Origin: Phoronis australis
Lineage: Eukaryota > Animalia > Phoronida
NCBI GenBank assembly: GCA_002633005.1
Contig: NMRA01000256.1
Span: 200,784-264,783 of the forward strand
Reading direction: 5' to 3'
DNA length: 64,000 nucleotides
Below, piece by piece: positions 1-52,464 of this stretch. Under the pieces are notes generated by a model. The model was given only the letters and a program-made list of their open reading frames with translations. It had not been told where the DNA came from and made no database searches. Every line of letters starts with the position of its first letter. Positions within the stretch are counted from its first letter, which is position 1. Position numbers and translations under genes: made by a program.

Positions 1-507
1 CAGCCAAAAATGGCAAAAACAAGGATTCAGCAACTTCAAAGTTCATCGTAGATACTTAGGCAGGGTCAAAAAAAATGTCACTTGGGAGAATGTCAGCCAA
101 TCAGATTCCCTAGAAAATCAACGTCAGATGTATTCTCCTCACTCTAGATGTATATCTCGTCAAATATACAATGATCCTTCACCAAACTTGAGGCAGTTGT
201 AAAAATGTCACTAGGGAGCAATGTGATATTCACTGGTTCATCAGAAAACCAATGCCAGACATGTAGACCAATGGCCATTGATTTACGAACTTAAGATTTC
301 CACTAATAGTTGAAGGTGGCTCAGCAACATCCGGATTCATCCGAAATTCGTCATCTCTTATCATGTTCGCAGAAACGTGCCTGACAGATTCCACGAAGGG
401 GTTTAGGAGATACGGCTACAGACGCCGAACGCCCGGACGCTGAACAAAGATCATGTGACTACAAGATGTGTCCGCGTACATGGTACATGCACGTGGGAGC
501 ATAAAAA
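1..507 (-). mobile_element. Partial Helentron/DINE-like element running off the window edge
   Basis: GTCACTAGGG units, GGGTTTAGGAGATAC, CGCCCGGACG microsatellite, terminal GTGGGAGCATAAAAA. Confidence 0.55.
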
Positions 508-1082
508 TCTCAGTTCAATATTTGTAAATAAAGACAAAATTTAATTATAAAGTAAAGCATTCATGTAGAATGGTGCCTCAGACCAGACCAAAGGAGCATT
601 CTCTGTGCCGGTTAGTTGCATTTCACTAGATTTTTTCTCGCTGTGAAACATTTATTTAACTCGACCCATGACTGCATTATGTAGACCCAAAACACTCGCG
701 AGAAAATTATTGTGATCACTTTCTTGGGTTGTAAGGTATCACAATAAGTTGCAGACCTGCGTGATCTCGTGTTTTCGCGCGTTTCTTGCGTCTGCGACAC
801 ACACGTTCAATTTACAACCCTGTCACCATCCAAGGTCTCCCGACTTCGGTAGACTACCAAGCCAGGATTCCAACTATGTGTTGTTCGGCCAGTGTATGGC
901 TACACTTCGTATTCAGGTCAAAGTACTTTTGATCCAGTCATTTTCACAAGCAGGTTATGAAAAGGATAATGTTGTTAAGGCGTACTTCGCAGCCCCAATT
1001 AATTTAAACAAAATTATTTCACAAGGTCTTTCAGTAAAACTTCAATGCACATTTCTGACATTCATCTCCAACAATCCTTTAA

Positions 1083-1452
1083 AAGGATACCAGACCCGGG
1101 TTTAGCCTTTTAATAGATACTAAAAACGAATTTACCATCCAGTTCTCTAGAACAAAGTAATGTTTGGTAATCCACGACAACCCTCAAAAGTTTGGAGGAA
1201 AGTTTGAAAACCCCTTTCAAAGTCTGCTAAACGGGCAAGCGTGACTTACGCTTTTAGCGAGTTACAAGACAACTGTGGGAAGAGTTAAAGACCACCCACC
1301 AAGGATCATAATGTCCAATTTGTGAGCTAGTGGTATGAGCTTTCAGTTAATTCCTGCTTTTGTCTGGTACGTTTGACGCCAAAGTTGCATTAACAGGTGA
1401 CCGGGGAGAGCGAGGACTGGTTGAAATCATCACAGCAGGGTTTAGTATCCTT
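1083..1452. mobile_element. TTAA-flanked MITE (Kolobok-type termini)
   Basis: TTAA|AAGGATACCAGACCC...GGGTTTAGTATCCTT|TTAA (13/15 TIR match). Confidence 0.7.
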
Positions 1453-1536
1453 TTAACAAGTTCATTCAGGGCCCACTTGAAACTACTAAGGAGAATAGCT
1501 GCTATTGTATCATGAAATACAACGAGAAATACAAAC

Positions 1537-1783
1537 CTGGCACTTGATAGACATTTTCCCCCATGTCCCCTCTCTCGTTCAGATACTTCATGTACATACT
1601 TTCTTGTTTCAGCCGACGACCTTGTTTCCTTTTATTCAAGACTAAACAAACGGTTAAGGCCACAAAAGCCAAGATGAGGGCAAGTGCACCAAATCCGACT
1701 CCCATTCCAATTTTGAAAGCCTCTCTATCGGTAGATTTCCACTTCAAGAACCCCACGTTCACCTTGATATTTCCAACTTGCAC
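1537..1783 (-). CDS. Receptor exon 14: end of last IPT, transmembrane helix, juxtamembrane tail
   Basis: VQVGNIKVNVGFLKW, then hydrophobic IGMGVGFGALALILAFVALTVCLVL, basic stop-transfer NKRKQGRR and ENVYQVP. Phase-1 donor G|gtttgt at 1536; read-through would stop at 1502. Confidence 0.88.
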
Positions 1784-4700
1784 CTGGAGAAAAGCATGTT
1801 TCCAAAAGGTCATTTTGACCTGTCATAGACTGCAAAGATCTGTGCAATTTGTGTGTAGTCTATCAGAGGTTCCTCTCTCTCCCACACACATATAAAAAGA
1901 AGAATAGTTTGCTAGAGGTCTTACTATGCGCAAAATTTGTTGAATAAATCCCCGACAATGACGTCAGATTATCGGACGCCACAGTCGTTTACTAAGTTGT
2001 AGCAAATATCGTGTGCAAACACGCTTGAATGGACAGTCGCTCAAATTAAGCAGGATCGTTATCATGAAATTAAATTTTGCATAAAAGAATAGAAGAATTT
2101 AGAGAACCCTGAGCGAGTTGGCAGATGAAGTGCTCTTTCCAACGCATACATGTAATTGTTTATACCATACAAAAATTACGTGTATTTGTGTTGATTATTT
2201 TAACTGCTAAAATATGCATGTTACCAGAGTCAAATTTGAAAATTGTGTCTATTTTATGATACTGTTTCTTTAATCCGCCTCTTTCAGAACACAACGTAAT
2301 CCACAATATCAGCAAGTAAGAATAACCCAACATAGCAGACCAATGTGCCTGTGCTGCACCTTTGGATTTTCAAGCCTGTTAGCTGTAAGCGCGTTCGGGT
2401 CTTACTCGTTAGCGCGTTAAGCGAACGATTCCTAAACCAATGAACATTCATATCCACAAGATTACGTCACAAATTGCTGGTTGAGAATGGGTTGTTTACC
2501 AAGAATTGTACAATAGAAAAAAATGCAGCCACTTGACCTTTTCATTTATTATGCAGGGCGAACCTGATTCAAATTTTGACAGACGCAGTGGAATCCGATA
2601 GTGTTGCTGTGTAATTGCTGACATGTTTTGTTGAGGTAACATTTGACATAAATAATGCATTCTGGGAAATGATGCCAGAGAAGAACTCTGTGACTGAGTG
2701 GGACTAATCTCTTGTTTAGATGACAGTTTCAGAGACAAAGAGACACTACTTTCAGTCTGTTTGGCACGATACCCTTATGGTCTTGTCATGGAAATCTGGT
2801 GCCCCGAAAATTATCCAGCCAATAGGGATGAAACCATTTCCATTACGTCAGTTTATAAGTTCCCTATCCTTGATTTGATGTTATATTGAAGTTAGTGAAT
2901 GATATTTAAAGAATAACGAACTATATGCAGGACATCGGAATCTTCGTCTAACAAAGTCAGAAGTTAAAAGCCGAAGCACTGCAAACTGACAAAACTCGAT
3001 ACACCACTGAGACAAGCGAGCCGTCACATATATGTACAAGTGTACAAACTGATCCGTTAGTCGATACATGCAGGCCTAGCTTGGCACGCTAATGTGTGAA
3101 ATCCGTTCGCGTTAACAACTGACAGGCTTGGAATTCCATAACAAAGCCGGTTAACGCGTTTTAATGCGTCCGGGGATAGATTAATGCGCTAACGTGTAAA
3201 CACTCGAGCGCGTCAACAAGTGACAGGCTTGAAATTCCATAGCAAAGCCAATAAACGCGTTATTTAATATATTCTGGCCTAGATGATCGAGCTAACGTGA
3301 AAAACCCGTTCGCGTCAACTATTGACAGGCTTGGAATTCCATAATAAAGCCAATTAACGCGTTTTTAATACATTCGGGTCTAGATTAACGCGCTAACGTG
3401 TAAAAACTTGTGCGCGTCAACAAGTGACAGGCTTTAAATTCCACATGTACAGATATTTACGCCTGATTTTATAGTATATCAGTTGGGAACATGTGCTTCA
3501 ACCGACCTTCACATGGGGAGTTCGTCCAGTGCCAAAGTTGTTTTCGTCTACTTTGGGTTGAGATTCCGGTGGTCGACAGACGATCTGGTTCGAAGATAGG
3601 TCTGTCACTGCACACTGAGCAGCAAGTCCCACGTAAACGGTGTAATCTTCAATGGCGCAGCCGTAATTCATACGTAAACCCTGTAGTGAAATCTTGCTTT
3701 GAAAACCCGATAACAACGTAGAGTAGATGACATTTATCATTTTCACGGTTTCCCACTCCACTGTTATGGGATTGTTAAAGCTGTTATGTACTAGCGTTTA
3801 AATTAGACCACTTACATTGCTTTGCTATGAATTTACATTTCATTTTTCCTAAATTTCACTAAAAAGACATGGTCACCAGACACAATTAATAGCAGATTGG
3901 TATAATGTCAAAAAATCGACTTCTACCATCTTTCTTATATGCAGTTAAAATCTATAGTTTGTACATATCTGGTTAGACAGACAGACATTTCCTACAGGCA
4001 CGTACCGTATTTATCGGCCAAACCACCTAATTATCGAGTCTGGTCTCGCGTAATAGTATAACAAAGTGTCTGTTCATTTTAAGTCTAAGAATTAGCACCT
4101 CTCCTAATGTGAGTAGACTAAGGAGAAGGTTCAGACGAACTTTGTAACAGTACTTGGTCGAAATTAAAAGTTATCTTTTTAGGGAGGGCGATATTATGCT
4201 GCTTTACGAGACCAATTTGGAAAATTCACAGAATTCATGAGTTTAGTGTACACGTACTTGGGAAACAGCCTTTCAGTAGGATGGAGAACATTAATGAAGG
4301 TAGGCATGAGGCCATCAATACAGCTAGTGTCTTTGACGTAATTTCAACAACCAGACTTAAAAATGAAGACATTTATCAAGACCAAAAAAGCGGCAATTGC
4401 TGTTGTCAGTTGTTATTGTAATGCTTGAAAACAACTGTCTTACTGAGTTTGACCGCAGTTCCTGATAACAAAATGAGAGTTTTTAAAACAACTTTTGTTA
4501 ATGAGACAAAGGCCTCTACCTTAATGGTAATGAAAGGCCTCTCCTTCGGATCAAACATCTTAACTTGACCAGGTTCCGTGAATTCGGATATAAAAGGATT
4601 TGAAAACACACGAATCCTTGAGTACTGTGGCAGGGATGAAGACAAGTTCGTGTAGGTCGGGACGCCATCTAGAATGAATCCTAAGTAAAACTCGAGATCG

Positions 4701-7700
4701 TCGTTGTTCAGTGATTGCTTGATCTGCTCCTCACGTTTTTGTCTTGATCCGTAGTTGTCAGGGAGAACGATATGCGGGGTTGGGCAGTCCATTGCGGTTG
4801 AATTTCTGACGGTGCAAATCTGAAGGAGAGTTACAGTGTATGTAAGATTATGTACACATACTCTAACCTCAATCAACGCCAATTTGTGAATGAAACATAA
4901 AGAGAACATTTCTCTAAAACAAAAAAATAGAACCCTGGTTTTTCTAACTTAAGTTTTGGGTTAATTTTTGTCACGACAAGAACGGGCACAGTATAAAGAT
5001 TTCACTCGTTAATGACTCATCTTCCCTCGTAGATGACTCATCTAAAGAGTTCGAAAATTTTGGAACTTCCAAGCATTATTTACTTTACAACAACGTCCTA
5101 TATGAGGGCCATTTATAAACGAAATCAATTTTGACCGAAGTTACCAAAGTAGGTCTTAGTATCTATTTAATATGACTGAATAAAAATCAAAGTTTTCAAT
5201 AGCTACCGTGCTAAAAGTAGTAGAAGTGACGATGTACACCATTGTTGTAATCATAACTGGGGCGTACACTGAATCCAAGTTGCTCCCGTACACATGAAGA
5301 ATGACGCCTCCTCTGAAATACAAGAGATTAAAATAGTGGCGGATCGAGGATAACCATAAGGCGAGGGGCCAGTATGTTGCCTCGGAGAATTGGGCAAAGC
5401 GCGATTGTATGTGCACAGGGAAAGTTGCGAGGGCCGGGGATGTGGACCTTCTATTCAGAAAAGCTATCGGTGGAATAAAAAAAANNNNNNNNNNNNNNNN
5501 NNNNNNNNNNNNNNNNNNNNNNNNNNNNNNNNNNNNNNNNNNNNNNNNNNNNNNNNNNNNNNNNGGGGGGGGGGGGTGCGTTCATCAGTGTAACCATGGG
5601 CGGTGTAGCACTGAAAAAGTGGGGCTATAGCCCCCAGCCCCTCTGTAGTGCACCGCCCATGGTCTAAGGCCCAGCGCTGAAAAAAGTGGGGGCTATACCC
5701 TTTGGTGCGCCGCCCATGGTAATACAGCCTTATAGAGATACCAGAGCGTCAGTGATATGGGATTCGGTGACACTCGGACGCGTATTCTAAGAATAAATCT
5801 GTCAGCCAAGTTTTGCATGATTTGGAGTTTATATAAGAGCGTTACTTTAGTAGCGCAAGATACATGACATGGCCAGGTTGTGACCTGATCGATTTCGTGT
5901 TCATCATGTGGTCACACGTGAATCTACAATGACGAACTCAAAGTATGCGCACTGAAAAGTCAAAAGGTTGTACCTCAAGAATGTCTCCAAAGGCTCTATG
6001 CGTTGAATAACTGGGTCTCCTTTATATGTAAACTCAAAAGTGGTACTGGTGGTAAAATTGTGAGGATATACGTCATAAGTAAGTTTAACATCCACAACTT
6101 CTTCTTGTTCATTCTTGCCTGTCCGACATACAACTGTCGTGTCGTTTCTGTAAAATACAATGCCACACAATAAATACAACTTGAATACACTACAATGTAC
6201 TGCTCCGCGCCTTCACTACATTACGATAGAAGTACAGTAGGCACCTGAATACTTGCAGATTTCCCATAGTGTGCAAGAGAAGTGGAAGAAAAACGTAACC
6301 GTCAAAATGTCTAACGGGACTTTCAGTTTTTGATGACGGATTTGAATAAACATTATGCTTGCAACGCAGCTGAAGGTAAGACATATCAAAAAGCCACCTG
6401 AGAGCTGAAGTGATGCGATATTTTTCTCGTCTAGTGGTCCAGTGGTGCGCGAGGGGGAGGGTCTGTCCATGACTCAAAACTGTACAACAATTAATATCAT
6501 CATGAAAGACTCGTAAGCAATTGCCGCTAAGTAGCGCAGAGACTTTGATAAAAATATTTTAGAACCGCTTGCGTGGTCTTTCGACTTCTCTGGAAGGGAT
6601 GCAGGCGTGAGCTTATTTTTAAACAGTTTCAAAACGATTTGGCACAGGCCAAAACCAACTACGCTATTTTCATTGGTTTCATCAAACGTATGGCCGTATC
6701 ATTTTTAAAATTTCAGCAAGCAAAATGCCACGAAGTCTTCTTTTTCTAAACTTGACAATAACGTTTACTAAATGTACATATTCTAATTCATTACCTTTTC
6801 TCAATAGAGCAGAATTTGTCACCAACCAGAACCTTTACGTAGTGTAGATAAACTCCTCTTAATATGACCACAGTGCCACCAGCGAGCGGGCCGTAGGAAG
6901 GTCCAATAGAGGTCAAATGTGGCGACTGAAATGTGTATTTGACAGGTGTTATATGCAATTCAGTACTTTGAGTTTGAGGAGAAGGATGCGAACGACAACT
7001 TAATTTACGGGTTGTTTATTTCACTTTACAATGGGTTGTGTGATGCCAGTCATTCGAAACAGAATGAAACCAATGAAAACAGAGCACACAATTTAAATTA
7101 AAAGGCGAAGGCAACCTTTTCTCATGTCACTTTTAGCAAAAATAAGGTATTTTGATTATCCCAGGCATATTTTTCACGTAATTACAGCTTTTCGTAATTT
7201 AATTAATTTCTCTTCCTCTACTCCGGAAGTGACGTTTTGGGAGGCAAGAATTTCGTGCCAATTTCCTTTCATACAGTCAGACTGTGAGAGCTGTCAAGTC
7301 AGTCATTGTTCTACCTCGGATGTGATAAGTTTGGTCGTCGTTTGCTTTTGTTTACAAGTCAGTCAACATGCCACGCTGTTGCTGCGTACCAGGATGTACT
7401 CATTATCGTTATACAACGCTTTGGGTACCTTCCATCGCTTTCCGAAGGATGACACACTTCGTCGCCGTACTTGGCTAGCTCGTTCGTGTGAAGAATGCAG
7501 CGCTACCCATTCACGCAACGTACAAAGCAGTGGCGAGCATTTTCAGCCGTTAGATTACGATAGTGATATGTACCCTGAATTGATGAAGGTCCCTGCGAAA
7601 CAACGCCTGAAGAAGGGTTCCATAACGTCGCTGTTGATTCCCGGCAGTGCCCCGTTGCCACCCCCGAGTAGTGCGTTTTTAAAGCGAGAAGCCTCGCAAG

Positions 7701-10700
7701 CTGTGGCCACCATAAACAGTGACTGGAGGCACTTCATCTACTGTCACCCATGCCTCCGAACGTACCCCATAGCGTGCAATTCCAAGAACTAGCAGTGATT
7801 CCCCGTGTGCTGTTGTCTCTAGCCTAGAGTCTGTAAGCAGCCCTGCAGTGATGTTGAGTAATGGAAGTGAATACACGCCCAGTTTGACACCCAGTGAAAA
7901 GGACAGTTCGTCATACAATGAACAGATTGGTGACCCTAAGTTTGATAAGTTTGTTGTGGACTTGTATAGGAGCTCTTTAGAAGCTGCCACGTGTGTGACG
8001 AGGGAATCGCACGGTGGGGTGCTCAAGTCACATGATCCACTGGGAGTGTGTCGCGGGACACTCGGGCAAGTGGGACAGTTCTTCCTCTGTACGTGAGACG
8101 ATAATGAGTACATCTCGGTAGGCAGCAACAGCGTGGCATGTTGACTGACTCGTAAACAAAAGCAAACGACGACCGAACTTATCACAACCGAGGTAGAACA
8201 ATGACTCGACTGCTCTCACAGTCAGACTGTATGAAAAGAAATTGGCGCGAAATTTTTGCCTCCTAAAACGTCACTTCCGGAGTAGACGACGAGTAATTAA
8301 TTAAATTACGAAAGCTGTAAATAAGTGAAAAATATGTCTGGGATAATCAACGAACCCTATTTTTGCTAAAAATGGCATGAAAAACGGTTGCCTTCGTCTT
8401 TAAACAGAGTGTCTGTTCCAGTCTAAATACGAAGTAAAGGCACAGAGGTGTAAAACATGTTCGACTTTAAATGCCATGTCAGAGTAACTCAAAATTCGAC
8501 AGCACTTTTAATAACTTAGACATAAAACAGACTACGTACACAATCGGAAGGCAGCGACCCGGAGCTTGAACTTCGGCAGTTACATTGCCCGGTCGTGACG
8601 TCACAAATCCTCGAGCTGTTTTTCACAACGCCGGCTGGGTGACACCGGCACGGCACACATGGTGAAAAGTCTTGCACTGCAGATTGCCGGAAATATCCTC
8701 GCTCACAAATTTCACAGTTGACTCCTCTTGTGTTTTGTTGGCAGTGGCACTGATAAGTGCCGTTCGAAAATATCGTGCAATTAGACGCATGACCGTTACA
8801 TGCGCACCTAGTTGCAAAAAATAAACACACGCATTCATCGTTATTGCTCATGGTGCATTTTTGATTCTTCACTTCCCTGCACCTTCTTTTTATTTCGAAA
8901 TATTATCATTATCTTTGAAAACTTTCATCTTAACCCTAAATAAATTCATCTTGAAGGCAGTTTTTCGTTTACCGTCGGCGTTTCCCTTTTCTGCTCTGTC
9001 GCCACCTACTGAGAGTTTTTTTGAAACGCGCAGCCAGTGTAATGACTCAAGGCCAATAAATTAGAGTCAGCCGTGAGTATGCACACTCATCACAGCGCTA
9101 AGGGCAGCCACCAGCACATGATTTGTGTTTTAAAAAGGTAAAGAAATCGTAAAAATATCTTTTAAACTGATCGTGGCGAATCTACATCTTGAGGACTCTA
9201 ACGTGAGAGTTATTCACTGTGAAAATTGCAAAAGTTTCAAGAAAAAAATGTCAGATGCACTATTTTTAAAACACAGACGAAATATAAGACTCTTTCTTCC
9301 CAATACAGTTTCAAATTCCAGGCCTCTGATGTCATATGTCGGACAGGGTAGAGTTCAGTAGCTGACTAGGGGCGAGAAAAACCTAGCCAAAATCACGTAC
9401 TCTCATTTAAAATACACTGCAATACCTCGCGTAATCTCGCTACGGCTAGCCTTTTTGTGAGGTCCTGGTATTATTGAACTCTACCCTGTCTGCTGCTTGA
9501 AATCGCCATGGTTTTGCTTACATTAACGGTCAAATGTCGCATTTCCCATAGAAGAGAAATGTGCTACCTCTATGCCTTGGCATACGAAATAAAAAGACGT
9601 GATTTACCTTGTGGGAGAAAAATCAACGAAGTGAGGGGCAGTTGACAGGTAGCTTTTTTAAATTTGAAACTATGGGAAAATGCTTTGAGATCAGCAGAAA
9701 TCCAAATCGTTACGAACAACTGTAAAAATAACTGGTAAACAGTTTGACTTCTTTTTCAGTGGCAGAGAACCACTTTGAATATTTTAGTCTATTTTACACG
9801 TTGTAGGCCTCTGACTCTAGCCTTGAATCTCACTCACATTAATTCTACTTCAATCCAAGATTGTCTGAGAATACTCGTTGAAGGAAAGTAATTACGGCAA
9901 ATGTTTTGGACAATAGTATACCATCCCAATGAATCGTCACACAAAAATCTGGAGGGGAATGTTTCGGGCCGCGAACGTCACTTCCAGGTGACGCATCAAT
10001 CATGAATTAGAAACCGGGGACTTTAATAAACTTGAAAATTTATTCAGGATAACCAAAAATGGCAGGGTATAAAAAATACACTCAAACCCAATGTCTGCCC
10101 CTTTAAGCCTCTCAAATGATGTCACAATTTATTAATCTTTCAGCAGATGGTTATCCGACCATTCTAAATTGTGCCAAAATGTGTTCTAATGTTTTCTGTA
10201 GTTCATCCGTCGATCATCATAACTAAAAGACAAGTGAATATTGGAGCCTATCCTCTAGCATAATATCTTAGTTCTTTTAATAGTTAAATAATTAACAATT
10301 TTGAAATATATTTCCCAACAGTTACCTTCCATTTACAGCGATCTCCTGCACCCCAAACCAGGCTTCTCCTTGACCGTTATTAAGAATAACTCGCACGTGA
10401 CGCGCTAAACCTCGGTAAGAATCACTTGGATAAAGGGGACTTAGATCTATTCTGAGAGTATAGACGTCCGTGAGGTTTGGCCTGGTATATAAAATAAAAA
10501 CAGCAAAACGTTTAAACTCAAGAAAGAACACTGCATCCACAAATTTTAAAGTTGGAAAATAATTCAGAAAAGATCACGTCCAAAATCCGTACCTCTGAGT
10601 CGTTATCACAATACGATTTATTCAATTTGCCTCAACAAGTGACCACAATTATCAGTAATGTTCCTTATGTACAGTGAATAGGAAATTGTTACCCCACGGA

Positions 10701-13700: not shown

Positions 13701-16700
13701 TTAAGAAATAGATAGAAGTGACAAAGCGGTGGCGTTGGGGATTTCATAAGGTACCTCGTATAGGTCTAAAATGTAGGCTACTTGTTATGTAGTCTAGCGC
13801 ACTGCATGAGAAAGAAAGAAGGTGTCTTCAACTATTAATAGGAAACTCATCAAACTATATATTCTAAAAATCCTTCGGAGTCACAGAATTATATTCTGTG
13901 CATGAAAACAATGTTCAGAGGTACCTTATCAAGTGACAGCATTTTTGTCAAATATCACAATTTTAACGGAGATCGCTGTAATTTCCACAAATTCGGGTTT
14001 TTTCGCTCAAAACGTCCAAATTCTGCTGTTTTATCTTATTAGCTACGAAACTGTGTCTGGGATTTCTTATTAAGGCCTTTGAGCTCAAGAAATCCGATGT
14101 CAGATTTTGACGTCTTGATTTCTGACAGCAGATTTCTCGGGCTAAGATGTCCTAAAGCGAAATCACAGACACCATTTTGTACTTATAGAACACAGACACA
14201 GAATTTGAAAATTTCGTTGACGTCGAAATCATATGTACTGTCTCTTTCACTGTTATTGAAGTGGGTGAAGGTTGCGGTGTTCTTTGTGATTGACAGAATT
14301 TTGGCTGTAAGAGTTGCATTTGTTGCATACTGAAATTTGTACCTATTCCTGGTGAGTTGATCGACTCTCTTGACAAATGACTGGAGAGTTCTGAACATGC
14401 AGTGCTTGGCCCTTCTTCCGTGCTTGGTGTAGCTATTGGAGACAGATTCGGGGTTGTGATGTCGGTGTCTGTTGCGTAATAAGATATTATCGATTCCACT
14501 TGTAGTTGGTGAATGTTTCATTGGTGTTTTTGAGTGCCGTCAGAATTTGGTGTGTATGGCTTACATCTGTTGCTGTTGTATGTTGAAAGAAAGTGCTCCC
14601 TGCTCGTGATGAAATTTGTTCTGATACACCAGAGCTAGTTCTCTTAGCGAGTACTGATTTCTGAACTGGAAGTGGATATAAACTTATTAGGTGAGACCGC
14701 TCGCTTTCGTCTTATATTTCTTGTCTGTGGTGTGGTAGACATGCCTAACGCAATATAAAATTATATACTTTTCATAAGTTTCAAAAAATAATTTAAACAT
14801 GTAACGGTTCTTTGTCAGCAGCTGTAAATAAACGTGATTCAAATGCAACACTTTTGGAGACGGGGAAAAGCATTGTATTACACTGTTTTAACAAAAGATC
14901 TCCAGGTTGTTTCAGAGCACAAGTGGGGTGTTTTCGATAAAAAAAATCTTACCGTCCGGCTTTATGTATCCGGCTAGAGTAAATGTTTGATTATCAGAGA
15001 TCCATGCGTCAGATTTTAATAAATCCCTCTTGTGCCAGGTCTGCACTCCGTCGATGGATACCGTTACGTCTGGAAAACTGAACTGTAATTGGGAGAATGT
15101 TGTAGCATGAAAATGGAGAACAACAAACAATTTTATAGCTTTTTAAATTTCAGTTTTTAAACAGGAACAACGCAGGAACTTTGAAATGCGCCCACGCCAG
15201 CATTGCAAACGGTGTGGTTCTTGGGATGTTTACTTGTACCATAAAAATGGATGGCTCAGAATACCCTGAACTCATCCGAAAATGGTAAGGTGTCGTCATC
15301 TCTACCTGCTTTCAAGTTAAAAGGAATACAATTGCAAGGTTTCAAAAACATCTTGGAAGAGGTTTAGGAGATACAGCCATAGATGCGAAAAATGTCACTA
15401 CGGGGCACCACAGTAGTTGTAACCGCTTGCTTGAAAATCTACGTCAGTCATGCTGTTGTCATTAGGAACACATCTACCAATTTTCATGATAATCTGCACG
15501 GTTTGGCAGATACAGAAGAAAATGACAAAAACAGATTAATAATAATTAAATGGTCACTAGATGGCGCAAAATCCGAAAACAGGAACATGTCATCGGTTCT
15601 TTAACAGAAAGCAATTTACCTAATTTCATAAAAATCTATCAAGGAGCTCCAGAGAATGAGAGTAAAACGAAAAAAATGAAATTGCCACTAGGGGGTACAC
15701 CATTCGTCGGATCCGTTTGAAAACCGTTGTCAACTTCATATAAATATACTTGCTAAATTCAATAAAGATCCTCTAGAGGGTTTAGGATATACAGTCATGG
15801 GCGTAATAACTGCCCTGGAGAGACGCCACGGAACTCAAAGTCTTCGGAAAATCATCGTCAGCCGCCCTCTTCACAGTAGGAACATATACTGTACGTCAAA
15901 TTTTACTATCATCCTTAGAGTGCTTAGGCTATTAGAGGAGCAGACGCTAAAAACAGACTAGAAAACAGTAAAAATTGTCCCTAGGTGTAGCAATGAATCC
16001 ATCCAAAAACGGGAGGATAGCGTCACCTTCTTAATAAATACACATCTGCCAAATTACATGAAATTTCGCTGAGGACATTTGAAGATACCGAGCTAAACGT
16101 AAAAAATAAAAATCGCCACAAGGGGCACAACAGTAGCCCGATTCGTCCGAAAGTCATCATCATTCGTAGACAACTTCACCTAAATACACTTGCTGAATTT
16201 AATAAAGATTCTACAGACGTTTAGGATCGAGATACAGACATGGGTGCAAAAACAAACAAAGCTGATACCAGTAGGCGTCACAGTAGTCAAAGTCGTCGGA
16301 AAATCATCATTAGCTGCCCTCAGGACAGTAAGAACATATATACCAATTTTCACAATCATCCTTAGAGTGGATTGATTGATAGAGGGGCGGACGCCAAAAA
16401 CAGTAAAAACTGCCATTAGGTGACATGACATACCTCAAATCCACCTGAAAATGGAAGGATAACATCATCTCACAAACAGATGCCTAGCTGTCAAATTTAT
16501 GAAAATCCATTAAGGACCTCCGAAAAAACAGAGGTAAACGTAAAAAATTAAAATTGCCACTAGGGAGCACACCGGTTGTCGGATCGGTCAGAAAGTTCGC
16601 TCATGAAGTTCTATCTAAGAACAGAACATATCTGCAAAATTTCAGTAACATGCATTGAAGGGTTTTGGAGATAGAGTACCGGACGACGGACGTCCAACGG

Positions 16701-19700
16701 ACGCCAGACCGACACCGGAAGGACGCCGGCCGGACGCCGGACCGACACCGGACGGACGTCGGACCAACGCCGGATTGACGGAGATGACGGCATAATGCGC
16801 TCACATATAAGTATAGCTGCACCAAAAAATGCTAGTACATTGTTAGTCATCATCTCATATTCGATGTTGCTTTGGTACAGATGAACTATGTGCCCAGTCG
16901 TATTCATTACCACTTTCTCACCATTCGGCAACTTTATCGCCAGTGAGCATCCCCATTCACCACACCTGCAAAGACCGTACAAAAATGAAACAGGCGATAC
17001 AATGGTAGTCATATATGTTCAAAAGTCTGTTGTCACGTTCACAAAAATGCACAGGCCAACTTTCACAGCTGCGGATGCTACAAAACCAAACTGCCACTAG
17101 GGGGCGCCGCAACAGTCAAACTGTCTAAAAATTGCAAACCATGCTCTTCCCAGTATGAACACATTTACCAAGAAAACAAAATTGCCACTAGGAAGCGCTA
17201 TAGTAGTTGGTGTTGTCAAAAATCGTCGTCAGCCGTCCTCTGCCCAGTAAGAGCATATATGTCAATTTTCATAACCGGCAGACAGAGGCGCGGCCGCCAA
17301 AACAGACTCAAAAATAATAAAAACGGTTACTAGGCGGCGTGCACTACGTCAAATCCATCTGAAAACGGAAGATGCCATCACCTCTTTAATAGAAATCTAT
17401 TTGGCAAATTTCATAAGAGTCCGTCAAGTTACTCCAAAAATACAGAGGAAAACGGGAAAATAAATTTGCCACTAGGGGGCACAGCGGTCGTTGGATCCGT
17501 CCAAAAGACATCGTCACCAATTGTCACCTTTATGTAAAACCACTTGCCAAATATAACAAAGTTCTTGCCGAGGGTTTAGGAGATACAGCTATGAATGCAA
17601 AAAAACTGCCACTGGGAAGAGACGCTGTAGTCGGAACTATCCGAAAAACATCGACAGCCGTCTTCTGTCAAGTAAAAAAATGTATGCCAATTTTCATGAT
17701 TACCTTTACAGTGGTTTGGCGTCTAGAGGGTATCACGGGAAAACAGTAAAAATGGCCAATGTGTGGCTCAAAATACGTCGAATCCATTACAAAACGTAAA
17801 GTTGGCGTCATTTTCGTAATAGCTACCTAACTAATTACCAAATTTCATGAAAATCCCTCAAGGAACACCGAAGATAACAGAGGCCACCGTGATTCAAAGA
17901 GCATCTGAAACTAGACAAACCAACAGCCGTAGGGGGAACATATTTTGGCGACTGGGCATTCCATCTCTCTTGCGTCATCCAGGATCCTAGCCAGGGAACA
18001 AAATTGGCATACTCGTAAGCTCAAAGAGGCCATAAACATCACCAGTCAACGCCCTCTCTTGAACCGGGACCGAGGANTTACCCCCCCCCCCCCCTGTACT
18101 ACAGCATTCTTAAAGGCGGGAAATCCCTCATTCATCGATAAAGACCTGGCGGACCAGGTTGAAACGTCTGAAAACAACATACCTCGTCTTTAAGTAAGTG
18201 ACCTTCTTATGTACTACAATGCCTCTAGAGACCAATGACGAACCTATTCTCCAGGACCGAACTTATCACAACCGAGGTAAAACATTGATTGACTCGACAG
18301 CTCACACAAATTATATGAATAGAAAAGGCGCGTAACTCTTGACTCCAAAAACGTCCCTTCCGGAGTATAGCACGAGTAATTAATTGCATTACGAGAAGCC
18401 GAAATTAATTGAAAAGTATGTCTGGGATAATCAACTAACCTTATTTTTACTGAAAATGACATGAAAAGAGGTTGCCTTCACCTTTAAATTCCACATTCAA
18501 ACTTTCTACTTCAATACGTTTATTGGGCTAAATTCTTAAAGGAGCATGCCACCCAAAAACAATCTAATTTGTATCAATTTAGATCGAGTAGTTCTACTCC
18601 ATAACGACACGTACGGAGGCAAACGGAGGTGTTGAAATTATCCAATGACGTCATCGGTTTCACACGCAGTCTGTTCAGCAGTTCACAACACGGGTTACTG
18701 GTGTCAGCTTATCGCTTGAAGACATCGTTTAACACCAATAAATCATCAAACTTCGATGTAAAATCCTTAAAAATACACCGAGTTCTTATAAAAACGTGTC
18801 GTTTTATTTCGCTCTTACGGATTTATTGGTACTTGGACACACCGTAGCTTACAAAGTTCGGCAGGCCAATAAGGTCCGTAGCAGGAGTTTGGGGTCTGTT
18901 CGGAGATAATTTCGAAGTATTTTCCGTAAGATACAGACAGGAGAACCTAGATCTGTGTTGTTTAGACTTGTGATTTTTGGAGTTCTAAACACAAAACGCT
19001 TGTTATCCTGGCCAGTGGCTCCGAGCTCGATCAGGCCCGTCATGGCCGGCCGGATTGACTCCGAGTCGTTATCCCGGCCAGTGGCTCGGAAACTGATCAG
19101 ACATCACGAACATAAACCAGCCAAAGTTCAGTGGAAACTAAACTTCCAGTCAATAAAATACTATACTAGTGAGCCAAAGTAATATGCACCTGATTATGTT
19201 GGTGAATTAGCCACGAAACTGCAAATCTACTTACTCGTCGGGGCCGCGAATTCAGGTTCCGCTTTGGCCACAGCACCGTCAGGGCAGAAGTTGTACATTG
19301 ACAATCATTATTTGAGTAATGTAAATGTAAATAAAGATTCCCCTAACACCTGGCCGTGAGATGGAAATCGAGTTGTTTCACAACAGTTTCTGCCAGCAAA
19401 CACTAAATTAGCATGAGCTCAGACGGCCTCGGTGTCTCGTCAATTAGTTTTATTGCACCTAAACCCGGTAACGCCGTGATTTATTCATTGCTGGCTTCTC
19501 AAATCATTTGCACTCACGAACACTCCAAAGGTATTACAAATTGCATCTAATGAGACAGACTTTGTTTCAGTTTTATATAAGTATTGGTTAGGGTGAGAAT
19601 AATTCATTTTGAAACAGAACGCTCATTAATAAACGCCAACATGGCAACTCGCAATCCCGACTTAGGACGAGCTAGAGCTCATCAGTCCCGACTTCACAGG

Positions 19701-22700
19701 TGGATCGTTAAGTTTTACAGGTTATCAATTCGAACAGGAATACAGTGATGAAGAAATACTAAAGAGGCGCCGTGAACAAGCTCAGACAACGGAACGTATG
19801 GAGTTTTCTGGTAAGCCGGCATTCGTCAGGCACTGTTGACGTCTGCAGGCCACAGACACGGAGATGTTTCACGGCCTCATACTTGCTATTTACAGCGTAC
19901 ATTTCATTCTTCACTATCATGAGTCACTTCCTAAGCATTTCGGACTCTCGAGGAAGTAAAAAAGCGATATACCCGCTTTCCTCGCAGCTGCTTAGTTCGG
20001 ACAAGCCGGAACGATGCACCGCAACATAGCGGCATTCACTCTGCATATGAACCACTGACGTCGCTAGCGTCGTTTCTCACTCGTTCCTCGCAGGTTAACG
20101 CGACACCTCTTGGCAAGGCAAGGTCGACCGTACACGAGGCGAAATGGATATAGACCGATTAAGACGGCAAAAAATAGGTAAATCGGGTGGCATTCTCCTT
20201 TAAGTTTTAAAAATAGGCTACTCGTCGAAACGCACAGACTTGGCAATATGTTTTGCTCAAAATCACTACCTAAATTGTAAATTATAAACTCATTTACATT
20301 ATGCAAAATAATAACAACGCTTCCATGCAATCACAGACAATGAAAATGGCCCTCCGAATGATTATTCAGTGGTTCACCCACAAAAGTGGTGTCAAAATTC
20401 TCCACTTTTGAAGGGGCTAGCTAGCGCGTGCAAACTTAGGCCTCTTTTATTCATTTTTCTTGGGCTCTCTCAGATTGATGTTTGAAATTAATTAAGATAA
20501 TTTAGTCCTCATTTCAGGGTTTCGTATTTAGATAGTTGAATGCTAAAATTCCGTAACGAATGTACCTTTCATGTGTCACGTACCCGCGATCTGATTTTGT
20601 CAAGCCGAAATCGTATAGTTCAAACTTCAATAAGTAGTGTTAGCGGTGATGTATCTTTCGGTGAAGCATAGAACTCTAGCCAGGACTGGAGTTCTACAGT
20701 TGAAGCAAATAATCACCTTCATCTAGCCCATGTAGAATTAGGAATGCATGCTCGACGTAAACGAATTCTGCCACCTTAAACAATGGTTTCTACATGTGGC
20801 ACTGCCTGAGGCACTGTCGTTCCAAGTCGTCAACTGCAAACCACGATAAAATTGTAACCTCAGGACTGTCATCGGAAATGAGAGGGTCTCGGAAATATAC
20901 TTGCTAGAGCTGAAAGTTGGATTATTATTCCGTGTGCTGTGTGTGTAGAGATGACAACATCAGATAAACATCGCCCTGATTATTTCCAAACGTTTTCGTA
21001 ACCCCAACGTCACGGGCTCGTACATCAAGATAATTTTAAGAAAGGTATTAACCTGTCCATTTGAAAAGATTAAGTGTGCGTATCTTATGTTCGAAAAGAG
21101 GCTCTAACAATCAACGAAGCAGGATATGTACGTCTGCTTTCTTCGTACAAAAATAATTGCCAAAATTTACTTTTGTTTTATTCAAAGGTTTTTTATCTTG
21201 CTGCAAATCATAGCCAGTTACTGAAATATTGTTTTATGACGTCCGATGTAGGTTGCATAAAAGCTATACCTTGAATATGATTAATGGCGTGTCATGATAC
21301 CATTATTGAGCAATGTACTGGACGTCATGCAAAAATCGAAGTTATCCAGCTGATAAGTTATAAAGTTTCATGTAACCCAACCTTGCATAGTACAGAACAA
21401 GCTAATGATAAACTACGGTAAATTTTTCTTAATCTTTATCTTTGATGAGAATTTTGACAACGTGAAATTTCACCTGTCCGACATACCGTACGCAATTACT
21501 TTTTACCTGGAGTGTGACGTGAGTCCACCGTCCAAGAACGATCGTCCACAGCATGTCGGTCAGGGTAAATGTTGGATCCTTGACCGAACGCTGCTGCAGA
21601 AGTAGTGTGTCGTTGAGAAGTGAACACTGCATCACCCAAGAGTTCGTTTGGACTGTGAATACGTGGCTGAAAATGTTAAAAGTTGTACGAGTGGTACAAG
21701 CCATTGCCCCGATCACCTTTCAAGTTTATAAAACGTTTGAAATTACAATCCTGACTCGTGTTCGCTATGAAACGCAATTTTAGATTGAGATTGGTTTCAA
21801 CAACGTTGGTTTACACAGAATGTGATGAAATTAAATTAATAAAAACACAACCGAACATGACGCATATCACTACCGTACTAGTGCTGCAGATAAAAAGCGA
21901 TTCTATTGAAACTTCAGCAGGGATAGATGCAAGAAACTCAACGAAAAGCAAAATCACTCATGATCACTCATAATGACGTGAGTGAAAGGTATCGTGCAAT
22001 GATGACAGGCACTAAAATAATTGGTTAGTAAGGTTGCAATGTTGAATTATGGGATATAATTTAGTATTTCCGTTCCATAAGCGAAGAATTCTCACCGCAA
22101 GAGCTTCACGAGTATCATGAGTCTACGGAAGGGTACGCACCCCAAAACACGAATTGCAAATGCCAATCAATGCTCGAGTTTTCTGCTATTATTTATCATG
22201 GAGCTTTCCCGTTGTTTTTCAAAACCGCCTCAAAGCAGAAAACGCAAGCCGTGTTTTGTGTAACAGATTAGTAGCCTACTGTGTTTTTCAGGTCTTCATT
22301 TGAAGAATAAATTAAGTATGCATACCGTGTAATATTGTCTGTGATATTGTGTTTTATCCAAAAGGTCGCCGTCGACTGTTGTCCGATAATAGAATGATTC
22401 ATTTTAATAGGCTTTTCTACGCAACGCGTTATTCCGCTGTAGTAAAGTGCCTGTCCTGTGCTCCTGCTTCTCACAGTCGCCCCACAGCTCCACTTTGACG
22501 AAGTAAGTACGTCGATGTATTTCGGTGTAGACGTTCTTGTTGTACACACCTTGGGGCTGCAGTTTAGTTTCCTTTGTTGGCTCAAGATGACTTCTCCAGA
22601 ACAGGAGACAGAAGCGCCGTCTGGATTCTCGTTTACAACCACCGGCTTACCGAGAGCCACGTTGAATTCTCGAGGATACCACAGACCGGACGCGGAACCA

Positions 22701-22753
22701 TCTCGGATGCCGCAACATGACCACACCAGGAAGAGGGCAGCGTAGTACCACAT
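1537..22753 (-). CDS. Multi-exon gene (14 coding exons in window, 2767 nt = 922 codons + 1 nt) for a usherin-head / laminin-EGF / 3x IPT / TM single-pass receptor-like protein; 3' end probably outside the window
   Basis: Exons 22753-22326, 21666-21507, 15082-14953, 13697-13552, 11272-11099, 10971-10799, 10481-10326, 8807-8540, 6925-6795, 6147-5974, 5312-5207, 4819-4520, 3680-3507, 1783-1537. All are bounded by GT-AG, phase-compatible and join into one stop-free frame. Confidence 0.85.
2364..3442. mobile_element. MITE/foldback-like element with tandemly repeated right terminus
   Basis: 2364-2420 is the reverse complement of a unit (TTAACGCGCTAACG...GACAGGCTTGAAATTCC) repeated about 4 times at ~104-bp spacing in 3085-3442. 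Confidence 0.6.
3507..3680 (-). CDS. Receptor exon 13: IPT3
   Basis: GLRMNYG...DYTVYVG...CAVTDLSSNQIVCRPPESQP; ctacag|GGT and AAG|gtcggt. Confidence 0.9.
4520..4819 (-). CDS. Receptor exon 12: IPT2 end and IPT3 start, includes RQKR
   Basis: ICTVRNSTAMDCPTP...RQKR...FYLGFILDGV...FSNPFISEF...FITIK, plexin-like (C.V.N.T.M.C.TP, GF.LDGV). Confidence 0.9.
5207..5312 (-). CDS. Receptor exon 11: IPT2
   Basis: GGVILHVYGSNLDSVYAPVM resembles plexin/MET IPT (GG..I.V.G.NL.SV..P). Donor ACG|gtagct was inferred from the phase of the next exon. Confidence 0.8.
5485..5564. other. Assembly gap (N run) in a receptor intron, flanked by homopolymers
   Basis: 80 N between poly-A and poly-G. Confidence 0.95.
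5593..5720. repeat. Tiny MITE-like element with duplicated right half
   Basis: ACCATGGGCGGTG...CACCGCCCATGGT (5593-5663) followed by a second CTGAAAAAAGTGGGGGCTATA...CCGCCCATGGT. Confidence 0.5.
5974..6147 (-). CDS. Receptor exon 10: IPT1 C-half and start of IPT2
   Basis: NDTTVVCRTG...FEFTYKGDPVIQRIEPLETFL; GT-AG bounded, phase 2-2. Confidence 0.9.
6795..6925 (-). CDS. Receptor exon 9: IPT/TIG domain 1, N-half (not in ORF track)
   Basis: tttcag|TCG...AG|gtaatg. SPHLTSIGPSYGPLAGGTVVILRG...VLVGDKFC is the canonical IPT motif P-x-x-GP-x-x-GGT. Confidence 0.92.
7102..8399 (+). mobile_element. Non-autonomous Kolobok-like DNA transposon, copy A: ~300-bp imperfect terminal inverted arms and THAP-transposase 5' remnant
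   Basis: TTAA|AAGGCGAAGGCAACC...GGTTGCCTTCGTCT|TTAA. Internal frameshifted MPRCCCVPGC...FHRFPKDD...W...EHF...LKKGSI (THAP), and later IHWECVAGHSGKWDSS. Confidence 0.85.
8540..8807 (-). CDS. Receptor exon 8: one full and one truncated laminin-type EGF (LE) repeat
   Basis: RCACNGHASNC...CHCQQNTRGVNCEICERGYFR...CVPCRCHPAG...CDVTTGQCNC...DC; donor TGT|gtacgt. Confidence 0.92.
9342..9490. mobile_element. Small MITE-like hairpin
   Basis: Perfect 16-bp IR GACAGGGTAGAGTTCA / TGAACTCTACCCTGTC. Confidence 0.55.
10326..10481 (-). CDS. Receptor exon 7: end of LN domain
   Basis: ARHVRVILNN...WFGVQEIAVNGR with AG|gtaac (phase 2), the classical LN C-terminal pattern (y-a-i-x-e-i-x-V-x-G-R). Confidence 0.88.
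10799..10971 (-). CDS. Receptor exon 6: LN domain (not in ORF track)
   Basis: gtag|GTT...AT|gtaagt. ...ATIQYRNNLATEWKTWVKFATFC matches the LN motif W-x-x-W-x-x-F-A-x-x-C. Confidence 0.85.
11099..11272 (-). CDS. Receptor exon 5: laminin N-terminal (LN) domain
   Basis: ctag|TTC...GAG|gtaag. VSRLAYDSTPSLINDGQNTTWTS...IVMDLKQDFE carries the LN pattern P-x-x-i-N-D...T-x-W-x-S...DL...F. Confidence 0.88.
12392..13358. mobile_element. Internally deleted Kolobok-like element with convergent 5' remnants of a THAP transposase (-) and an acidic KolX-like gene (+)
   Basis: TTAA|ACAGTACACACCATG...CATGTTGTGTACACT|TTAA (12/15 TIR match). Minus 13155-12878: RCVSGGCSNS.../PKDTKVAQKWHDFVRRTR...LCSAHFEDSCF (THAP, frameshift near 13055). 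Plus 12596-12865: MAETREFESDDD...FEPYELDPP. Confidence 0.8.
13552..13697 (-). CDS. Receptor exon 4: end of LamG-like domain and usherin-type CRCP linker (not in ORF track)
   Basis: ttaacag|AC GTC...AAG|gtattg. DVFLGHIQDFRFYEKILTSREIEEVYSG...SCRCPPDFPK closely resembles the usherin pattern F-x-G-x-x-QDFR-x-Y...LT-x-REI-x-EV-x-SG...CRCP. Confidence 0.88.
14343..14665 (-). pseudogene. Frameshifted Ser/Thr/Pro-rich (mucin-like) cassette exon remnant in the receptor intron
   Basis: Phase-1 acceptor ttccag at 14666-67. S/T-rich text moves between frames (VQKSVLAKRTSSGVSEQ..., KHSPTTSG, TDTDITTPNLSPIATPSTEEGPST). Candidate donors at 14564 (GAT|gtaagc) and 14342 (G|gtacaa). Confidence 0.45.
14953..15082 (-). 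CDS. Receptor exon 3: LamG-like domain
   Basis: tacag|TTC...GAC G|gtaag. FSFPDVTVSIDGVQ continues the W-x-HV...v-x-l-x-DG LamG motif. Confidence 0.8.
15160..16829 (-). mobile_element. Helentron/DINE-like element, same family, with expanded central tandem array
   Basis: Starts ACAGGAACAACGCAGG...ATGCGCCCAC; about 10 diverged GCCACTAGGGG units; ends in a CCGGACG microsatellite + GATGACGGCATAATGC. Confidence 0.7.
17040..17885 (-). repeat. Further array of the same GCCACTAGGGG tandem units (truncated element)
   Basis: Repeated AAATTGCCACTAGG...GGATCCGTCC...AAATTTCATGAAAATCC units as in 15300-16600 and 37370-37870. Confidence 0.65.
17886..18240 (+). mobile_element. Penelope-like retroelement 3' fragment (GIY-YIG endonuclease C-terminus + pLTR remnant)
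   Basis: FKEHLK...TAVG/EHILATGHSISLASSRILAREQNWHTRKLKEAINITSQRPLLNRDRG matches the PLE endonuclease tail pattern (EH...GH...IL.RE....R..KEAI.I.....LNRD.G). Confidence 0.85.
18131..18172 (+). ncRNA. Degenerate minimal type I hammerhead ribozyme of the Penelope fragment
   Basis: TTCA-[TCGATAA]-A-GACCTGG-CGGA-CCAGGTT-GAAAC-GTC-TGAA. Stem I, stem II, GAAA and the GUC triplet are present; the CUGANGA core has 3 substitutions. Confidence 0.55.
18255..18483 (+). mobile_element. Solo, diverged terminal arm of the 7102/52465 family
   Basis: Aligns by eye to the right arm (8172-8399); ends GGTTGCCTTCACCT|TTAA. Confidence 0.8.
18540..20199. mobile_element. Non-autonomous Kolobok-like element
   Basis: TTAA|AGGAGCATGCCACCC...GGGTGGCATTCTCCT|TTAA (14/15 TIR match). 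Internal decayed exon 19641-19810 (GYQFEQEYSDEEILKRRRE) ends at a gtaagc donor. Confidence 0.8.
21507..21666 (-). CDS. Receptor exon 2: LamG-like/pentraxin-like domain
   Basis: ttttcag|C CAC...CAG|gtaaaa. Encodes ...LGRWTHVTLQ, the W-x-H-V motif of LamG-like folds. Confidence 0.85.
22326..22753 (-). CDS. Receptor coding exon 1: signal peptide + usherin-like N-terminus + start of LamG-like domain
   Basis: MWYYAALFLVWSCCGIRDGSA signal peptide. LWYPREFNVALGKPVVV resembles the usherin/laminin LN start. ATFWIK is a LamG strand. Acceptor at 22794-95 upstream of ATG; donor CG|gtatg (phase 2). Confidence 0.85.
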
Positions 22754-52300: not shown

Positions 52301-52464
52301 CACAGCGTTGTCTTTCGGTATCCTGGAAAAGTAATACATTCAATTCATTGCTCATTTAGTGCATGTTCCTGTGTTGTTACTTCATGTTGTTGTGGGAGGC
52401 ACATAAATCATAGTAAGGTGTGGATTACAAGGCTAATAGGTATTTTAGGAAAGACACTTGTTAA

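Follow-up and report, generated by a model that had tools for sequence, protein, structure and literature searches.

An usherin-type head spliced onto a plexin/MET-type IPT stalk in an expressed gene of Phoronis australis

Introduction

Do the usherin-like and the plexin/MET-like exons that lie side by side on a contig of Phoronis australis encode a single receptor, and what would such a receptor carry inside the cell? The exons are located in a stretch of 64,000 nucleotides, referred to here as the window. Usherin is a deaf-blindness protein, and domain shuffling is common in invertebrate receptors. The plexin ectodomain is described in passages of PMC6374515 as showing little change from choanoflagellates through to humans. 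An earlier note on the locus proposed a complete chimeric receptor of 922 residues that ends in a short tyrosine-bearing tail. Here we show that the chimeric ectodomain is almost certainly real and is encoded by one spliced transcript, and that the gene runs past the window.

Results

Gene model and transcript

The gene is formed by 14 exons on the minus strand, and all 13 introns have GT-AG borders. When spliced computationally from the sequence, the exons give 2767 nucleotides, which correspond to 922 codons and one additional base, without a stop codon, as had been proposed. The encoded domains are arranged in the order signal peptide, LamG-like domain, CRCP linker, laminin N-terminal (LN) domain, laminin-EGF (LE) repeats, three IPT domains, and transmembrane helix.

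Exon 1, 22753-22326, minus strand: residues 1-143; start codon, likely signal peptide, usherin-type N-terminal cysteine segment, beginning of the LamG-like domain
Exon 2, 21666-21507, minus strand: residues 143-196; LamG-like domain
Exon 3, 15082-14953, minus strand: residues 197-240; LamG-like domain
Exon 4, 13697-13552, minus strand: residues 240-288; end of the LamG-like domain and usherin-typical CRCP linker
Exon 5, 11272-11099, minus strand: residues 289-346; LN domain
Exon 6, 10971-10799, minus strand: residues 347-404; LN domain
Exon 7, 10481-10326, minus strand: residues 404-456; end of the LN domain
Exon 8, 8807-8540, minus strand: residues 456-545; LE repeats; last usherin-derived exon
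Junction intron between the halves, 6926-8539, minus strand: phase 0, 1614 nucleotides; skipped whole by reads of runs X1, X2, and X3
Inverted-repeat element with THAP matches, 7098-8404: 1.3 kb of the junction intron
Exon 9, 6925-6795, minus strand: residues 546-589; first half of IPT (TIG) domain 1
Exon 10, 6147-5974, minus strand: residues 589-647; end of IPT 1, start of IPT 2
Exon 11, 5312-5207, minus strand: residues 647-682; IPT 2
Exon 12, 4819-4520, minus strand: residues 683-782; IPT 2 with an insert, start of IPT 3
Exon 13, 3680-3507, minus strand: residues 783-840; IPT 3
Exon 14, 1783-1537, minus strand: residues 841-922; end of IPT 3, transmembrane helix, juxtamembrane segment

The joint between the last LE exon and the first IPT exon (8540 to 6925) is spliced in all three raw-read RNA runs, and is crossed by two reads in X1, four in X2, and 15 in X3, whereas the contig run X4 contains no such joint. 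The first mate of these reads is always on the plus strand, as for the remaining exons, and the X3 count is within the range of the remaining introns (8-17). The fear that the two halves might be separate gene fragments was thus not borne out. Splicing was seen in the reads for ten of the 11 testable introns, that is, the 13 introns less those between exons 1-2 and 2-3, which are outside the read-aligned stretches; the exon 4-5 joint is not among the 15 of 26 junction rows listed. Exons 3 and 4 are joined by nine reads, and exons 5-14 are joined without gaps, with 13 reads each at the 5-6 and 6-7 joints, eight at 7-8, and 12 at 13-14, and with the joints of exons 9-13 also present. The gene is expressed and encodes a single-pass membrane protein. 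No paralogous exon was detected elsewhere in the 64-kb window.

Structure of the usherin-type head

A profile was constructed from the heads of three usherins: Branchiostoma floridae C3Y0F7, Patella vulgata XP_055957014, and Pampus argenteus KAM7423873, an unnamed protein taken as usherin-type by its domains. It matches residues 20-514 with an E-value of 1.9e-36, compared to 0.33 for the best of 200 shuffles. The matched region contains the LamG-like domain, CRCP linker, and LN domain in the order found in usherin, and the aligned parts of the usherins are labelled Laminin_G_3, Laminin_N, and first LE by Pfam. Judged by its sequence, the head is a diverged usherin derivative, and not usherin itself, because it is 27-32% identical to the usherins, compared to 44-46% among the three.

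The individual exons contribute unequally to the match. Exon 4 matches the usherin profile with an E-value of 5e-17, exon 1 matches weakly (0.001), and exon 2 has no significant match (0.25); Pfam found no LamG or LN domain in single exons, and a PDB search with exon 5 returned nothing relevant. Exon 4 had 176 matches in a HMMER scan, and among the 150 of these that were listed, only five sequences, all usherin-type, cover the exon in full (query 2-47/48). Most of the 150 are confined to the first half of the query and often cover it repeatedly; seven such matches were examined by Pfam and source. None of the 150 could be aligned to the IPT stalk at an E-value of 0.01. Matches annotated as usherin include those from Branchiostoma and Patella.

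Exon 8 is recognized as EGF_laminin by Pfam (E-value 1e-10) and matches laminins and netrins in the PDB. It encodes one full LE repeat with eight cysteines and a second that ends after the sixth of eight, close to the one and a half repeats estimated earlier. The LE array of usherin has about ten repeats, and the usherin matches carry 8-9 LE stretches according to Pfam. The long array is not present here, and exon 8 is spliced directly to an IPT exon in the reads. Pfam identified no fn3 domain in any of the 14 exons, and there are no later LamG domains before the membrane. The USH2A introns for which coordinates were obtained are c.651+1 and c.848+1.

Structure of the IPT stalk

Exon 9 matches the Pfam TIG domain above the cut-off (E-value 3e-6). 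Its best PDB match is human MET residues 657-699 (E-value 1.6e-5 in the full-length chain), followed by plexin-A1, A4, and A2, with a small margin between MET and the plexins (27.8-33.4 vs 18.6-25 bits on 43 residues). The TIG matches of exons 10 and 13 (E-values 0.05 and 0.0035) are below the cut-offs, in the case of exon 13 the curated one, and exon 10 has a weak PDB match to plexin-A4 (E-value 0.57), not to MET. Exon 11 alone has no family match in Pfam or the PDB, and exon 12 alone has no relevant match in Pfam, a word-based search, or the PDB; PDB searches with exons 13 and 14 also gave nothing relevant. The assignment of exon 12 to IPT domains was made by eye against one plexin passage, and its single-sequence fold was unusable (pLDDT 41). 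The insert in exon 12 contains an R-x-K-R furin-type site at residues 708-711. In an alignment by eye, the three IPT domains correspond to the final three of a plexin that bears a GAP domain, shown in the supplement of PMC6374515. Together, the sequence comparisons support a resemblance of the three IPT domains to the membrane-proximal IPT domains of MET and plexins.

No Sema or PSI domain was found by Pfam in any of the 14 exons; a weak match to the C-terminal part of Sema4F, below the cut-off, falls on the membrane helix. Residues 20-514 are accounted for by the usherin-type head.

Membrane helix and 3′ end of the gene

The hydropathy peak places the transmembrane helix at approximately residues 865-889, followed by a basic stop-transfer stretch. 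The juxtamembrane segment contains tyrosines 904, 907, and 919, the last of which is in an acidic Tyr-x-x-Pro context. As inspected by eye, its 33 residues show neither the helix nor the conserved motif found ahead of the GAP domain in the compared plexin, and contain glycines, prolines, and tyrosines instead.

Exon 14 ends one base into a codon (phase 1) at a GT donor at 1536. An X4 contig can be aligned exactly as far as 1537, beyond which it has seven further unaligned letters. Position 1500 is crossed by at most two reads, although the depth at 1583 is 19 and colinear RNA should yield approximately eight or more reads at this point; a loose read end at 1537 is not among the rows listed. 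The phase-1 donor at the end of the exon and the departure of the transcript from the genome at this position show that the gene continues past 1537, off the edge of the window, and that the cytoplasmic domain lies outside it. No convincing next exon was found within positions 1-1536, which hold four candidate phase-1 frames, and the X3 depth on the strand of the gene in 1-1140 is below one. The reads at 1141-1520 were considered as a 3′ untranslated region and rejected, as their loose ends at 1211 and 1456 and their fixed differences suggest that they come from a repeat.

These results uphold the earlier note in part. The exons, frame, domain order, and RNA joint stand, as do the absence of FN3, Sema, and PSI domains and the plexin/MET-type stalk; when the halves were searched apart, the head matched usherins and the first IPT exon matched MET, then plexins, as anticipated. 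The exon-by-exon Pfam check returned EGF_laminin and TIG as expected, but not LamG or LN. The short tyrosine tail as the end of the protein has to be abandoned, and with it the completeness of the protein at 922 residues.

Search for the architecture elsewhere

The combination of this head and stalk is likely to be novel, in line with the earlier failure to recognize a named family with this layout. We found no protein with both halves, and no second copy or orthologue of the gene; novelty is likely rather than proven, because exons were searched one at a time and with limited power for animals. Word-based homologue searches among proteins of up to 2000 residues gave no significant relative among 64 candidates for exon 12, two for exon 4, and five for exon 13, which is weak evidence, and a metagenome scan with exon 12 gave none among 185 pattern matches. 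An Atlas search with the Patella vulgata usherin showed no cluster with LN and TIG domains among ten structure rows, and its feature search gave one low-scoring row. No description of the architecture was found in the titles and abstracts of the literature searched.

Discussion

We propose, with a probability of approximately 0.55, that the gene encodes an usherin-type LamG/LN/LE head on a three-IPT stalk, was formed by exon shuffling, and continues beyond the window into a tyrosine kinase similar to that of Met-LP. At a phase-0 intron, a duplicated 5′ portion of an usherin gene was likely fused to the 3′ portion of a plexin or Met-LP gene, where it would have taken the place of Sema and all PSI modules. 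The low identity of the head to usherins (27-32%), together with the intact frame, indicates that the fusion is probably old. With the second LE repeat cut behind its sixth cysteine, three disulphides would remain complete and the joint could fold. The element within the junction intron is not taken to have caused the fusion, since its 91% identity to a copy at 52461-53775 makes it far younger than the divergence of the protein.

In the proposed receptor, the IPT stalk would hold the head off the membrane, and cleavage at the furin-type site may give two chains. The putative matrix-binding head would engage basement-membrane or laminin/netrin-type partners instead of a semaphorin or HGF. Receptor clustering could then lead to phosphorylation on tyrosine, and the juxtamembrane Tyr-x-x-Pro motif would serve for docking. 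We tentatively consider an undescribed class of Sema-less, Met-like receptor tyrosine kinases in which the usherin-type head replaced the semaphorin- or HGF-binding propeller, so that basement-membrane or laminin/netrin-type ligands would directly switch on Met-type signalling.

A Met-LP-like kinase is the somewhat favoured cytoplasmic domain because the first IPT domain finds its best PDB match in MET, and because the juxtamembrane segment has three tyrosines without the plexin lead-in to the GAP domain. The small margin between MET and plexins, and the weak preference of exon 10 for plexin-A4, weaken this prediction, as does the frequent occurrence among receptors of a phase-1 intron behind the membrane helix. 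It is strengthened because the MET introns after the membrane helix listed in PMC9255265 (c.2888 and c.3028) are also phase 1, and because plexin ectodomains gained kinases three times, with Met-LP expanded in echinoderms, according to passages of PMC6374515. The same source describes sponge Plexin-A1 to A4 with short non-catalytic tails, which weakens the prediction. Such losses of the catalytic domain, together with the acidic context of Tyr 919, speak for a rather unlikely alternative, in which the same ectodomain leads into no more than a tyrosine-motif tail that is short or disordered. The protein would then be a decoy, or an adhesion protein or co-receptor that recruits Src-family kinases and SH2 adaptors. 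Against this, stalks of the plexin/Met type usually bear a kinase or GAP domain (PMC6374515, in part).

It is improbable that the gene is a plexin in which the Sema-PSI ring was swapped for the usherin-type head while the Ras/Rap-GAP domain was kept inside: the alignment of the three IPT domains with those of the GAP-bearing plexin (PMC6374515 supplement) and the plexin-A4 match of exon 10 would fit, but the juxtamembrane segment lacks the pre-GAP helix and motif. An artefact, be it a pair of adjacent gene fragments, an assembly error at the transposon, or occasional read-through, is very improbable and largely refuted. The junction intron does consist mostly of a repeated transposon-like element, and X4 lacks the joint; however, three runs splice exactly at the GT-AG borders at ordinary depth, the RNA joint is independent of the assembly of the intron, and there is no stop or alternative start between the halves.

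The gene shows the IPT stalk as a swappable platform beneath a foreign head, and the LamG-LN-LE head separated from the FN3 rod of usherin. If a kinase follows, the receptor would be a direct read-out of the binding partners of the usherin-type head, which are poorly known and bear on Usher syndrome. The weight of these implications is limited, as invertebrate receptors often undergo domain shuffling, the gene may be lineage-specific, and its role is predicted from sequence. Sema-less relatives could not surface in the survey of Met and Met-LP, because its keywords and queries, as described in PMC6374515, were based on Sema.

Comparison with known systems

Netrins, netrin-G, and laminin short arms share the LN domain followed by LE repeats; to our knowledge, the LamG-like insert and CRCP linker are absent from them, and no member is a single-pass receptor with an IPT stalk. 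Met/Ron and Met-LP, the latter compared by its published description (PMC6374515, in part), resemble the gene in the IPT stalk leading to one membrane helix and in the furin-type site of the ectodomain, and MET additionally in the phase-1 intron after the helix (PMC9255265, in part). The starfish Met-LP genes are the nearest likely donors. They differ in having a Sema and PSI ectodomain, whereas the phoronid protein has neither and contains three IPT domains. Plexins are similar in the last three IPT domains of their Sema-(PSI-IPT)x3-IPT-IPT-IPT-TM layout, as given in PMC6374515, and in the single helix that follows, whereas the absence of Sema and PSI makes a ring impossible here, and the juxtamembrane segment is unlike the plexin helix. 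Usherin (USH2A) has the same colinear LamG-like (Laminin_G_3) domain, CRCP linker, Laminin_N domain, and first LE repeat. It continues with 8-9 LE stretches, FN3 domains, and later LamG domains, whereas in the phoronid receptor fewer than two LE repeats complete the head, and three IPT domains and the membrane helix follow it directly.

Gene model and transcript

Within the window, the gene has 14 exons on the minus strand, from 22753 to 1537, all with AG acceptors and GT donors. The parts discussed below are:

13697–13552, minus strand, exon 4, end of the LamG-like domain and cysteine (CRCP) linker
8807–8540, minus strand, exon 8, laminin-EGF (LE)
8539–6926, minus strand, junction intron
6925–6795, minus strand, exon 9, first IPT exon
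3680–3507, minus strand, exon 13, last IPT domain
1783–1537, minus strand, exon 14

Re-splicing gives 2767 nt, corresponding to 922 codons plus one base without a stop codon, which reproduces the exon count and uninterrupted 922-residue frame of the earlier note. The N-terminus reads, by eye, like a signal peptide, and a hydrophobic peak at residues ~865–889 is the candidate transmembrane (TM) helix. The spliced protein contains 18 N-x-S/T sites and a single R-x-K-R site at residues 708–711.

Three raw RNA-read runs (X1, X2, and X3) and one RNA contig run (X4), filed under one species label, were aligned to positions 1–11400, using ~18–19% of each raw run. Reads spliced from 8540 to 6925 connect the laminin-EGF exon with the first IPT exon; X1 has 2 of them, X2 has 4, and X3 has 15, whereas none was seen in X4. 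In plus-strand orientation the joint ends are CT..AC, and the first mate maps to the plus strand in all cases, as in the remaining exons. The spliced reads thus provide the transcript across this junction for which the earlier note had proposed an RNA check. In a stricter alignment of X3 to positions 1500–21499, 10 of the 11 introns located fully inside are spliced, by 8 to 17 reads each; the exon 4–5 joint is absent from the best 15 of 26 joints listed, and exons 1 and 2 lie outside both aligned stretches. The reads show that the LN, LE, IPT, and TM parts are linked on one RNA, to which the LamG-like exons are probably joined, as judged from intron phase and colinearity with usherin. The gene is a real, expressed, chimeric receptor.

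Indirect evidence indicates that the gene extends beyond the window, a loose end at 1537 not being among the joints and ends listed. Exon 14 ends with the first base of a codon and is followed by a GT at 1536. One X4 contig, aligned from 1740, breaks off precisely at 1537 and has seven leftover letters. The X3 depth is 19 at 1583, but only 2 reads overran either end of the stretch starting at 1500, where ~8 or more would be expected if the RNA were colinear with the genome up to an in-frame stop near 1503. No convincing further exon was found in positions 1–1536. The phase-1 donor, the contig end, and the few overrunning reads contradict the "Tyr tail" as the protein end, as which it was regarded previously; its 33 residues thus form a juxtamembrane segment, with the cytoplasmic domain located beyond the sequence in view.

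Usherin-type head

A scan of exon 4 over 1.84 billion representatives gave 176 matches, of which the best 150 were listed. Among these, five sequences cover exon 4 over its full length, cysteine linker included, and a sixth matches it in part. All six are usherins or usherin-like fragments from lancelet, limpet, and fishes, one being unnamed. Residues 7–545 of the spliced protein align colinearly with usherin-type sequences, the aligned parts of which are assigned by Pfam to Laminin_G_3, Laminin_N, and EGF_laminin. A profile built from three usherin heads covers residues 20–514 with an E-value of 1.9e-36 (best of 200 shuffles 0.33), which bears out the usherin-type N-terminal half proposed earlier. 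Exons 2, 3, and 7 taken singly have no significant match to this profile, and the single-exon Pfam search identified neither a LamG nor an LN domain. The head is 26.5–31.8% identical to the usherins, which share 43.5–45.5% among themselves, and is therefore a diverged usherin derivative.

The initial half of LE1 corresponds to LE1 of all three usherins. For the LE remainder, the usherin LE2–LE3 boundary is the best match in two and the second best in the third, which hints at a possible internal loss of one LE repeat. The second LE stops after the sixth cysteine; the usual LE disulphide pairing would leave such a repeat without a free cysteine. Most head introns occupy what we take to be USH2A intron positions, which is a lead. 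If the numbering holds, the phase-0 intron after residue 196 presumably fits the USH2A intron after c.651, and that after c.848 presumably has no counterpart in the gene. The two USH2A introns are of phases 0 and 2, respectively, according to the PMC8703989 supplement.

Plexin/Met-type stalk

The Pfam TIG profile matches exon 9 above the cut-off, whereas its matches to exons 10 and 13 fall short of it. In the PDB, the best match of exon 9 is MET (residues 657–699, full chain), followed by plexin-A1, A4, and A2; exon 10 has a weak plexin-A4 match. These matches agree with the earlier assignment of a plexin/MET-type IPT stalk. The Pfam search of all 14 single exons gave no Sema-domain, PSI, or fn3 match, in agreement with the absence of these domains noted earlier. 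Without its transposon-like insert, the junction intron has ~300 nt and is skipped whole by reads, so that no PSI exon is concealed there. The stalk introns have phases 0, 2, 2, 0, 0, 0, and 1, which we take to be those of human MET exons 8–13, also a lead. MET exon 14 spans c.2888 to c.3028, both phase 1, according to PMC9255265.

By eye, exons 9–14 parallel the three final IPT domains of a plexin that bears a GAP domain, including the cysteine pattern of the last one (PMC6374515 supplement). The last IPT contains three cysteines, at 790, 805, and 817, and that plexin likewise has three; the unpaired one might bond with another domain or chain. In exon 13, about half of the X3 reads have clustered letter differences at 3620–3623.

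Genomic surroundings

The CpG observed/expected ratio is 0.87–1.07 over the gene region, up to 28 kb, and 0.39–0.67 in the depleted 32–64 kb. Such a mosaic CpG pattern is associated with invertebrate animals. The ratio suggests that 32000–64000 is a methylated domain, perhaps introns of a large neighbouring gene. No paralogue of the gene is present within the window, which contains the following elements:

7098–8404 and 52461–53775, with a partial end at 18255–18488: 1.3 kb element with ~312-bp inverted ends
12300–13300, exon 4–5 intron: second, distinct THAP element (THAP E-value 1e-5 at 12881–13120)
26658–27293, minus strand: RVT_1 reverse transcriptase fragment (E-value 1.5e-12)
15300–17900, 37384–38032, and 42693–42982: diverged repeat family (65–77%), dispersed and tandem
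47990–49177: head-to-tail duplication of 594 bp (99.3% identity)

The two copies of the 1.3 kb element are 91% identical and contain a decayed THAP domain, and TTAA flanks the first. TTAA ends and THAP presumably recall Kolobok transposons. The element has dense RNA-read cover, originating from other copies, and the second THAP element has X3 reads on both strands. The diverged repeat family fills the exon 2–3 intron and is transcribed from one strand in X3. The RVT_1 fragment lies upstream of the gene and is what remains of a non-LTR retroelement, and the 594-bp duplication may be recent or an assembly artefact.

Origin and cytoplasmic domain

Most likely, copied usherin 5′ exons came to lie in front of the 3′ exons of a plexin or Met-LP gene, with a phase-0 intron as the point of fusion. 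This would yield a type I receptor, in which the IPT stalk presents the LamG/LN/LE head and the inner part signals binding. From usherin, laminin, and netrin biology, we infer that the head may bind matrix.

The cytoplasmic domain may be a Met-LP-like tyrosine kinase (probability roughly 0.55). Among solved structures, MET is the closest match, and the juxtamembrane segment, rich in tyrosine, differs from the plexin helix. A plexin GAP is improbable. According to PMC6374515, plexin ectodomains acquired a kinase once in the case of Met and twice in that of Met-LP, with an expansion in starfish. None of these points is decisive, and a short tail with tyrosine motifs, although unlikely, would be a better candidate than the GAP. 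A Met-LP-like kinase is the reading that we favour.

Comparison with known families

None of the 150 listed exon 4 matches (best of 176) includes the stalk. Word-based homologue searches with single exons were empty, the gene's own product not being found in the collections either, and an Atlas query with an usherin head gave no LN plus TIG cluster among the matches listed. A protein with both halves was not found by these single-exon queries, which are weak for animals. The layout is not described in the openly accessible literature searched, including the parts consulted of PMC6374515 and PMC10084454, and a term search of the PMC8662651 main text gave no match for laminin, IPT, or usherin. 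Automatic annotations of related genomes may already include such proteins as "plexin-like" or "HGF receptor-like".

The gene lacks the LE array and FN3 domains of usherin and is not an usherin. It also lacks the Sema and PSI domains of plexins and of Met/Met-LP and belongs to neither family, whereas its topology is like that of Met/Met-LP. As far as the searches reach, with starfish Met-LP sequences outside the comparison, it is a receptor of the plexin/Met kind with a previously undescribed layout.
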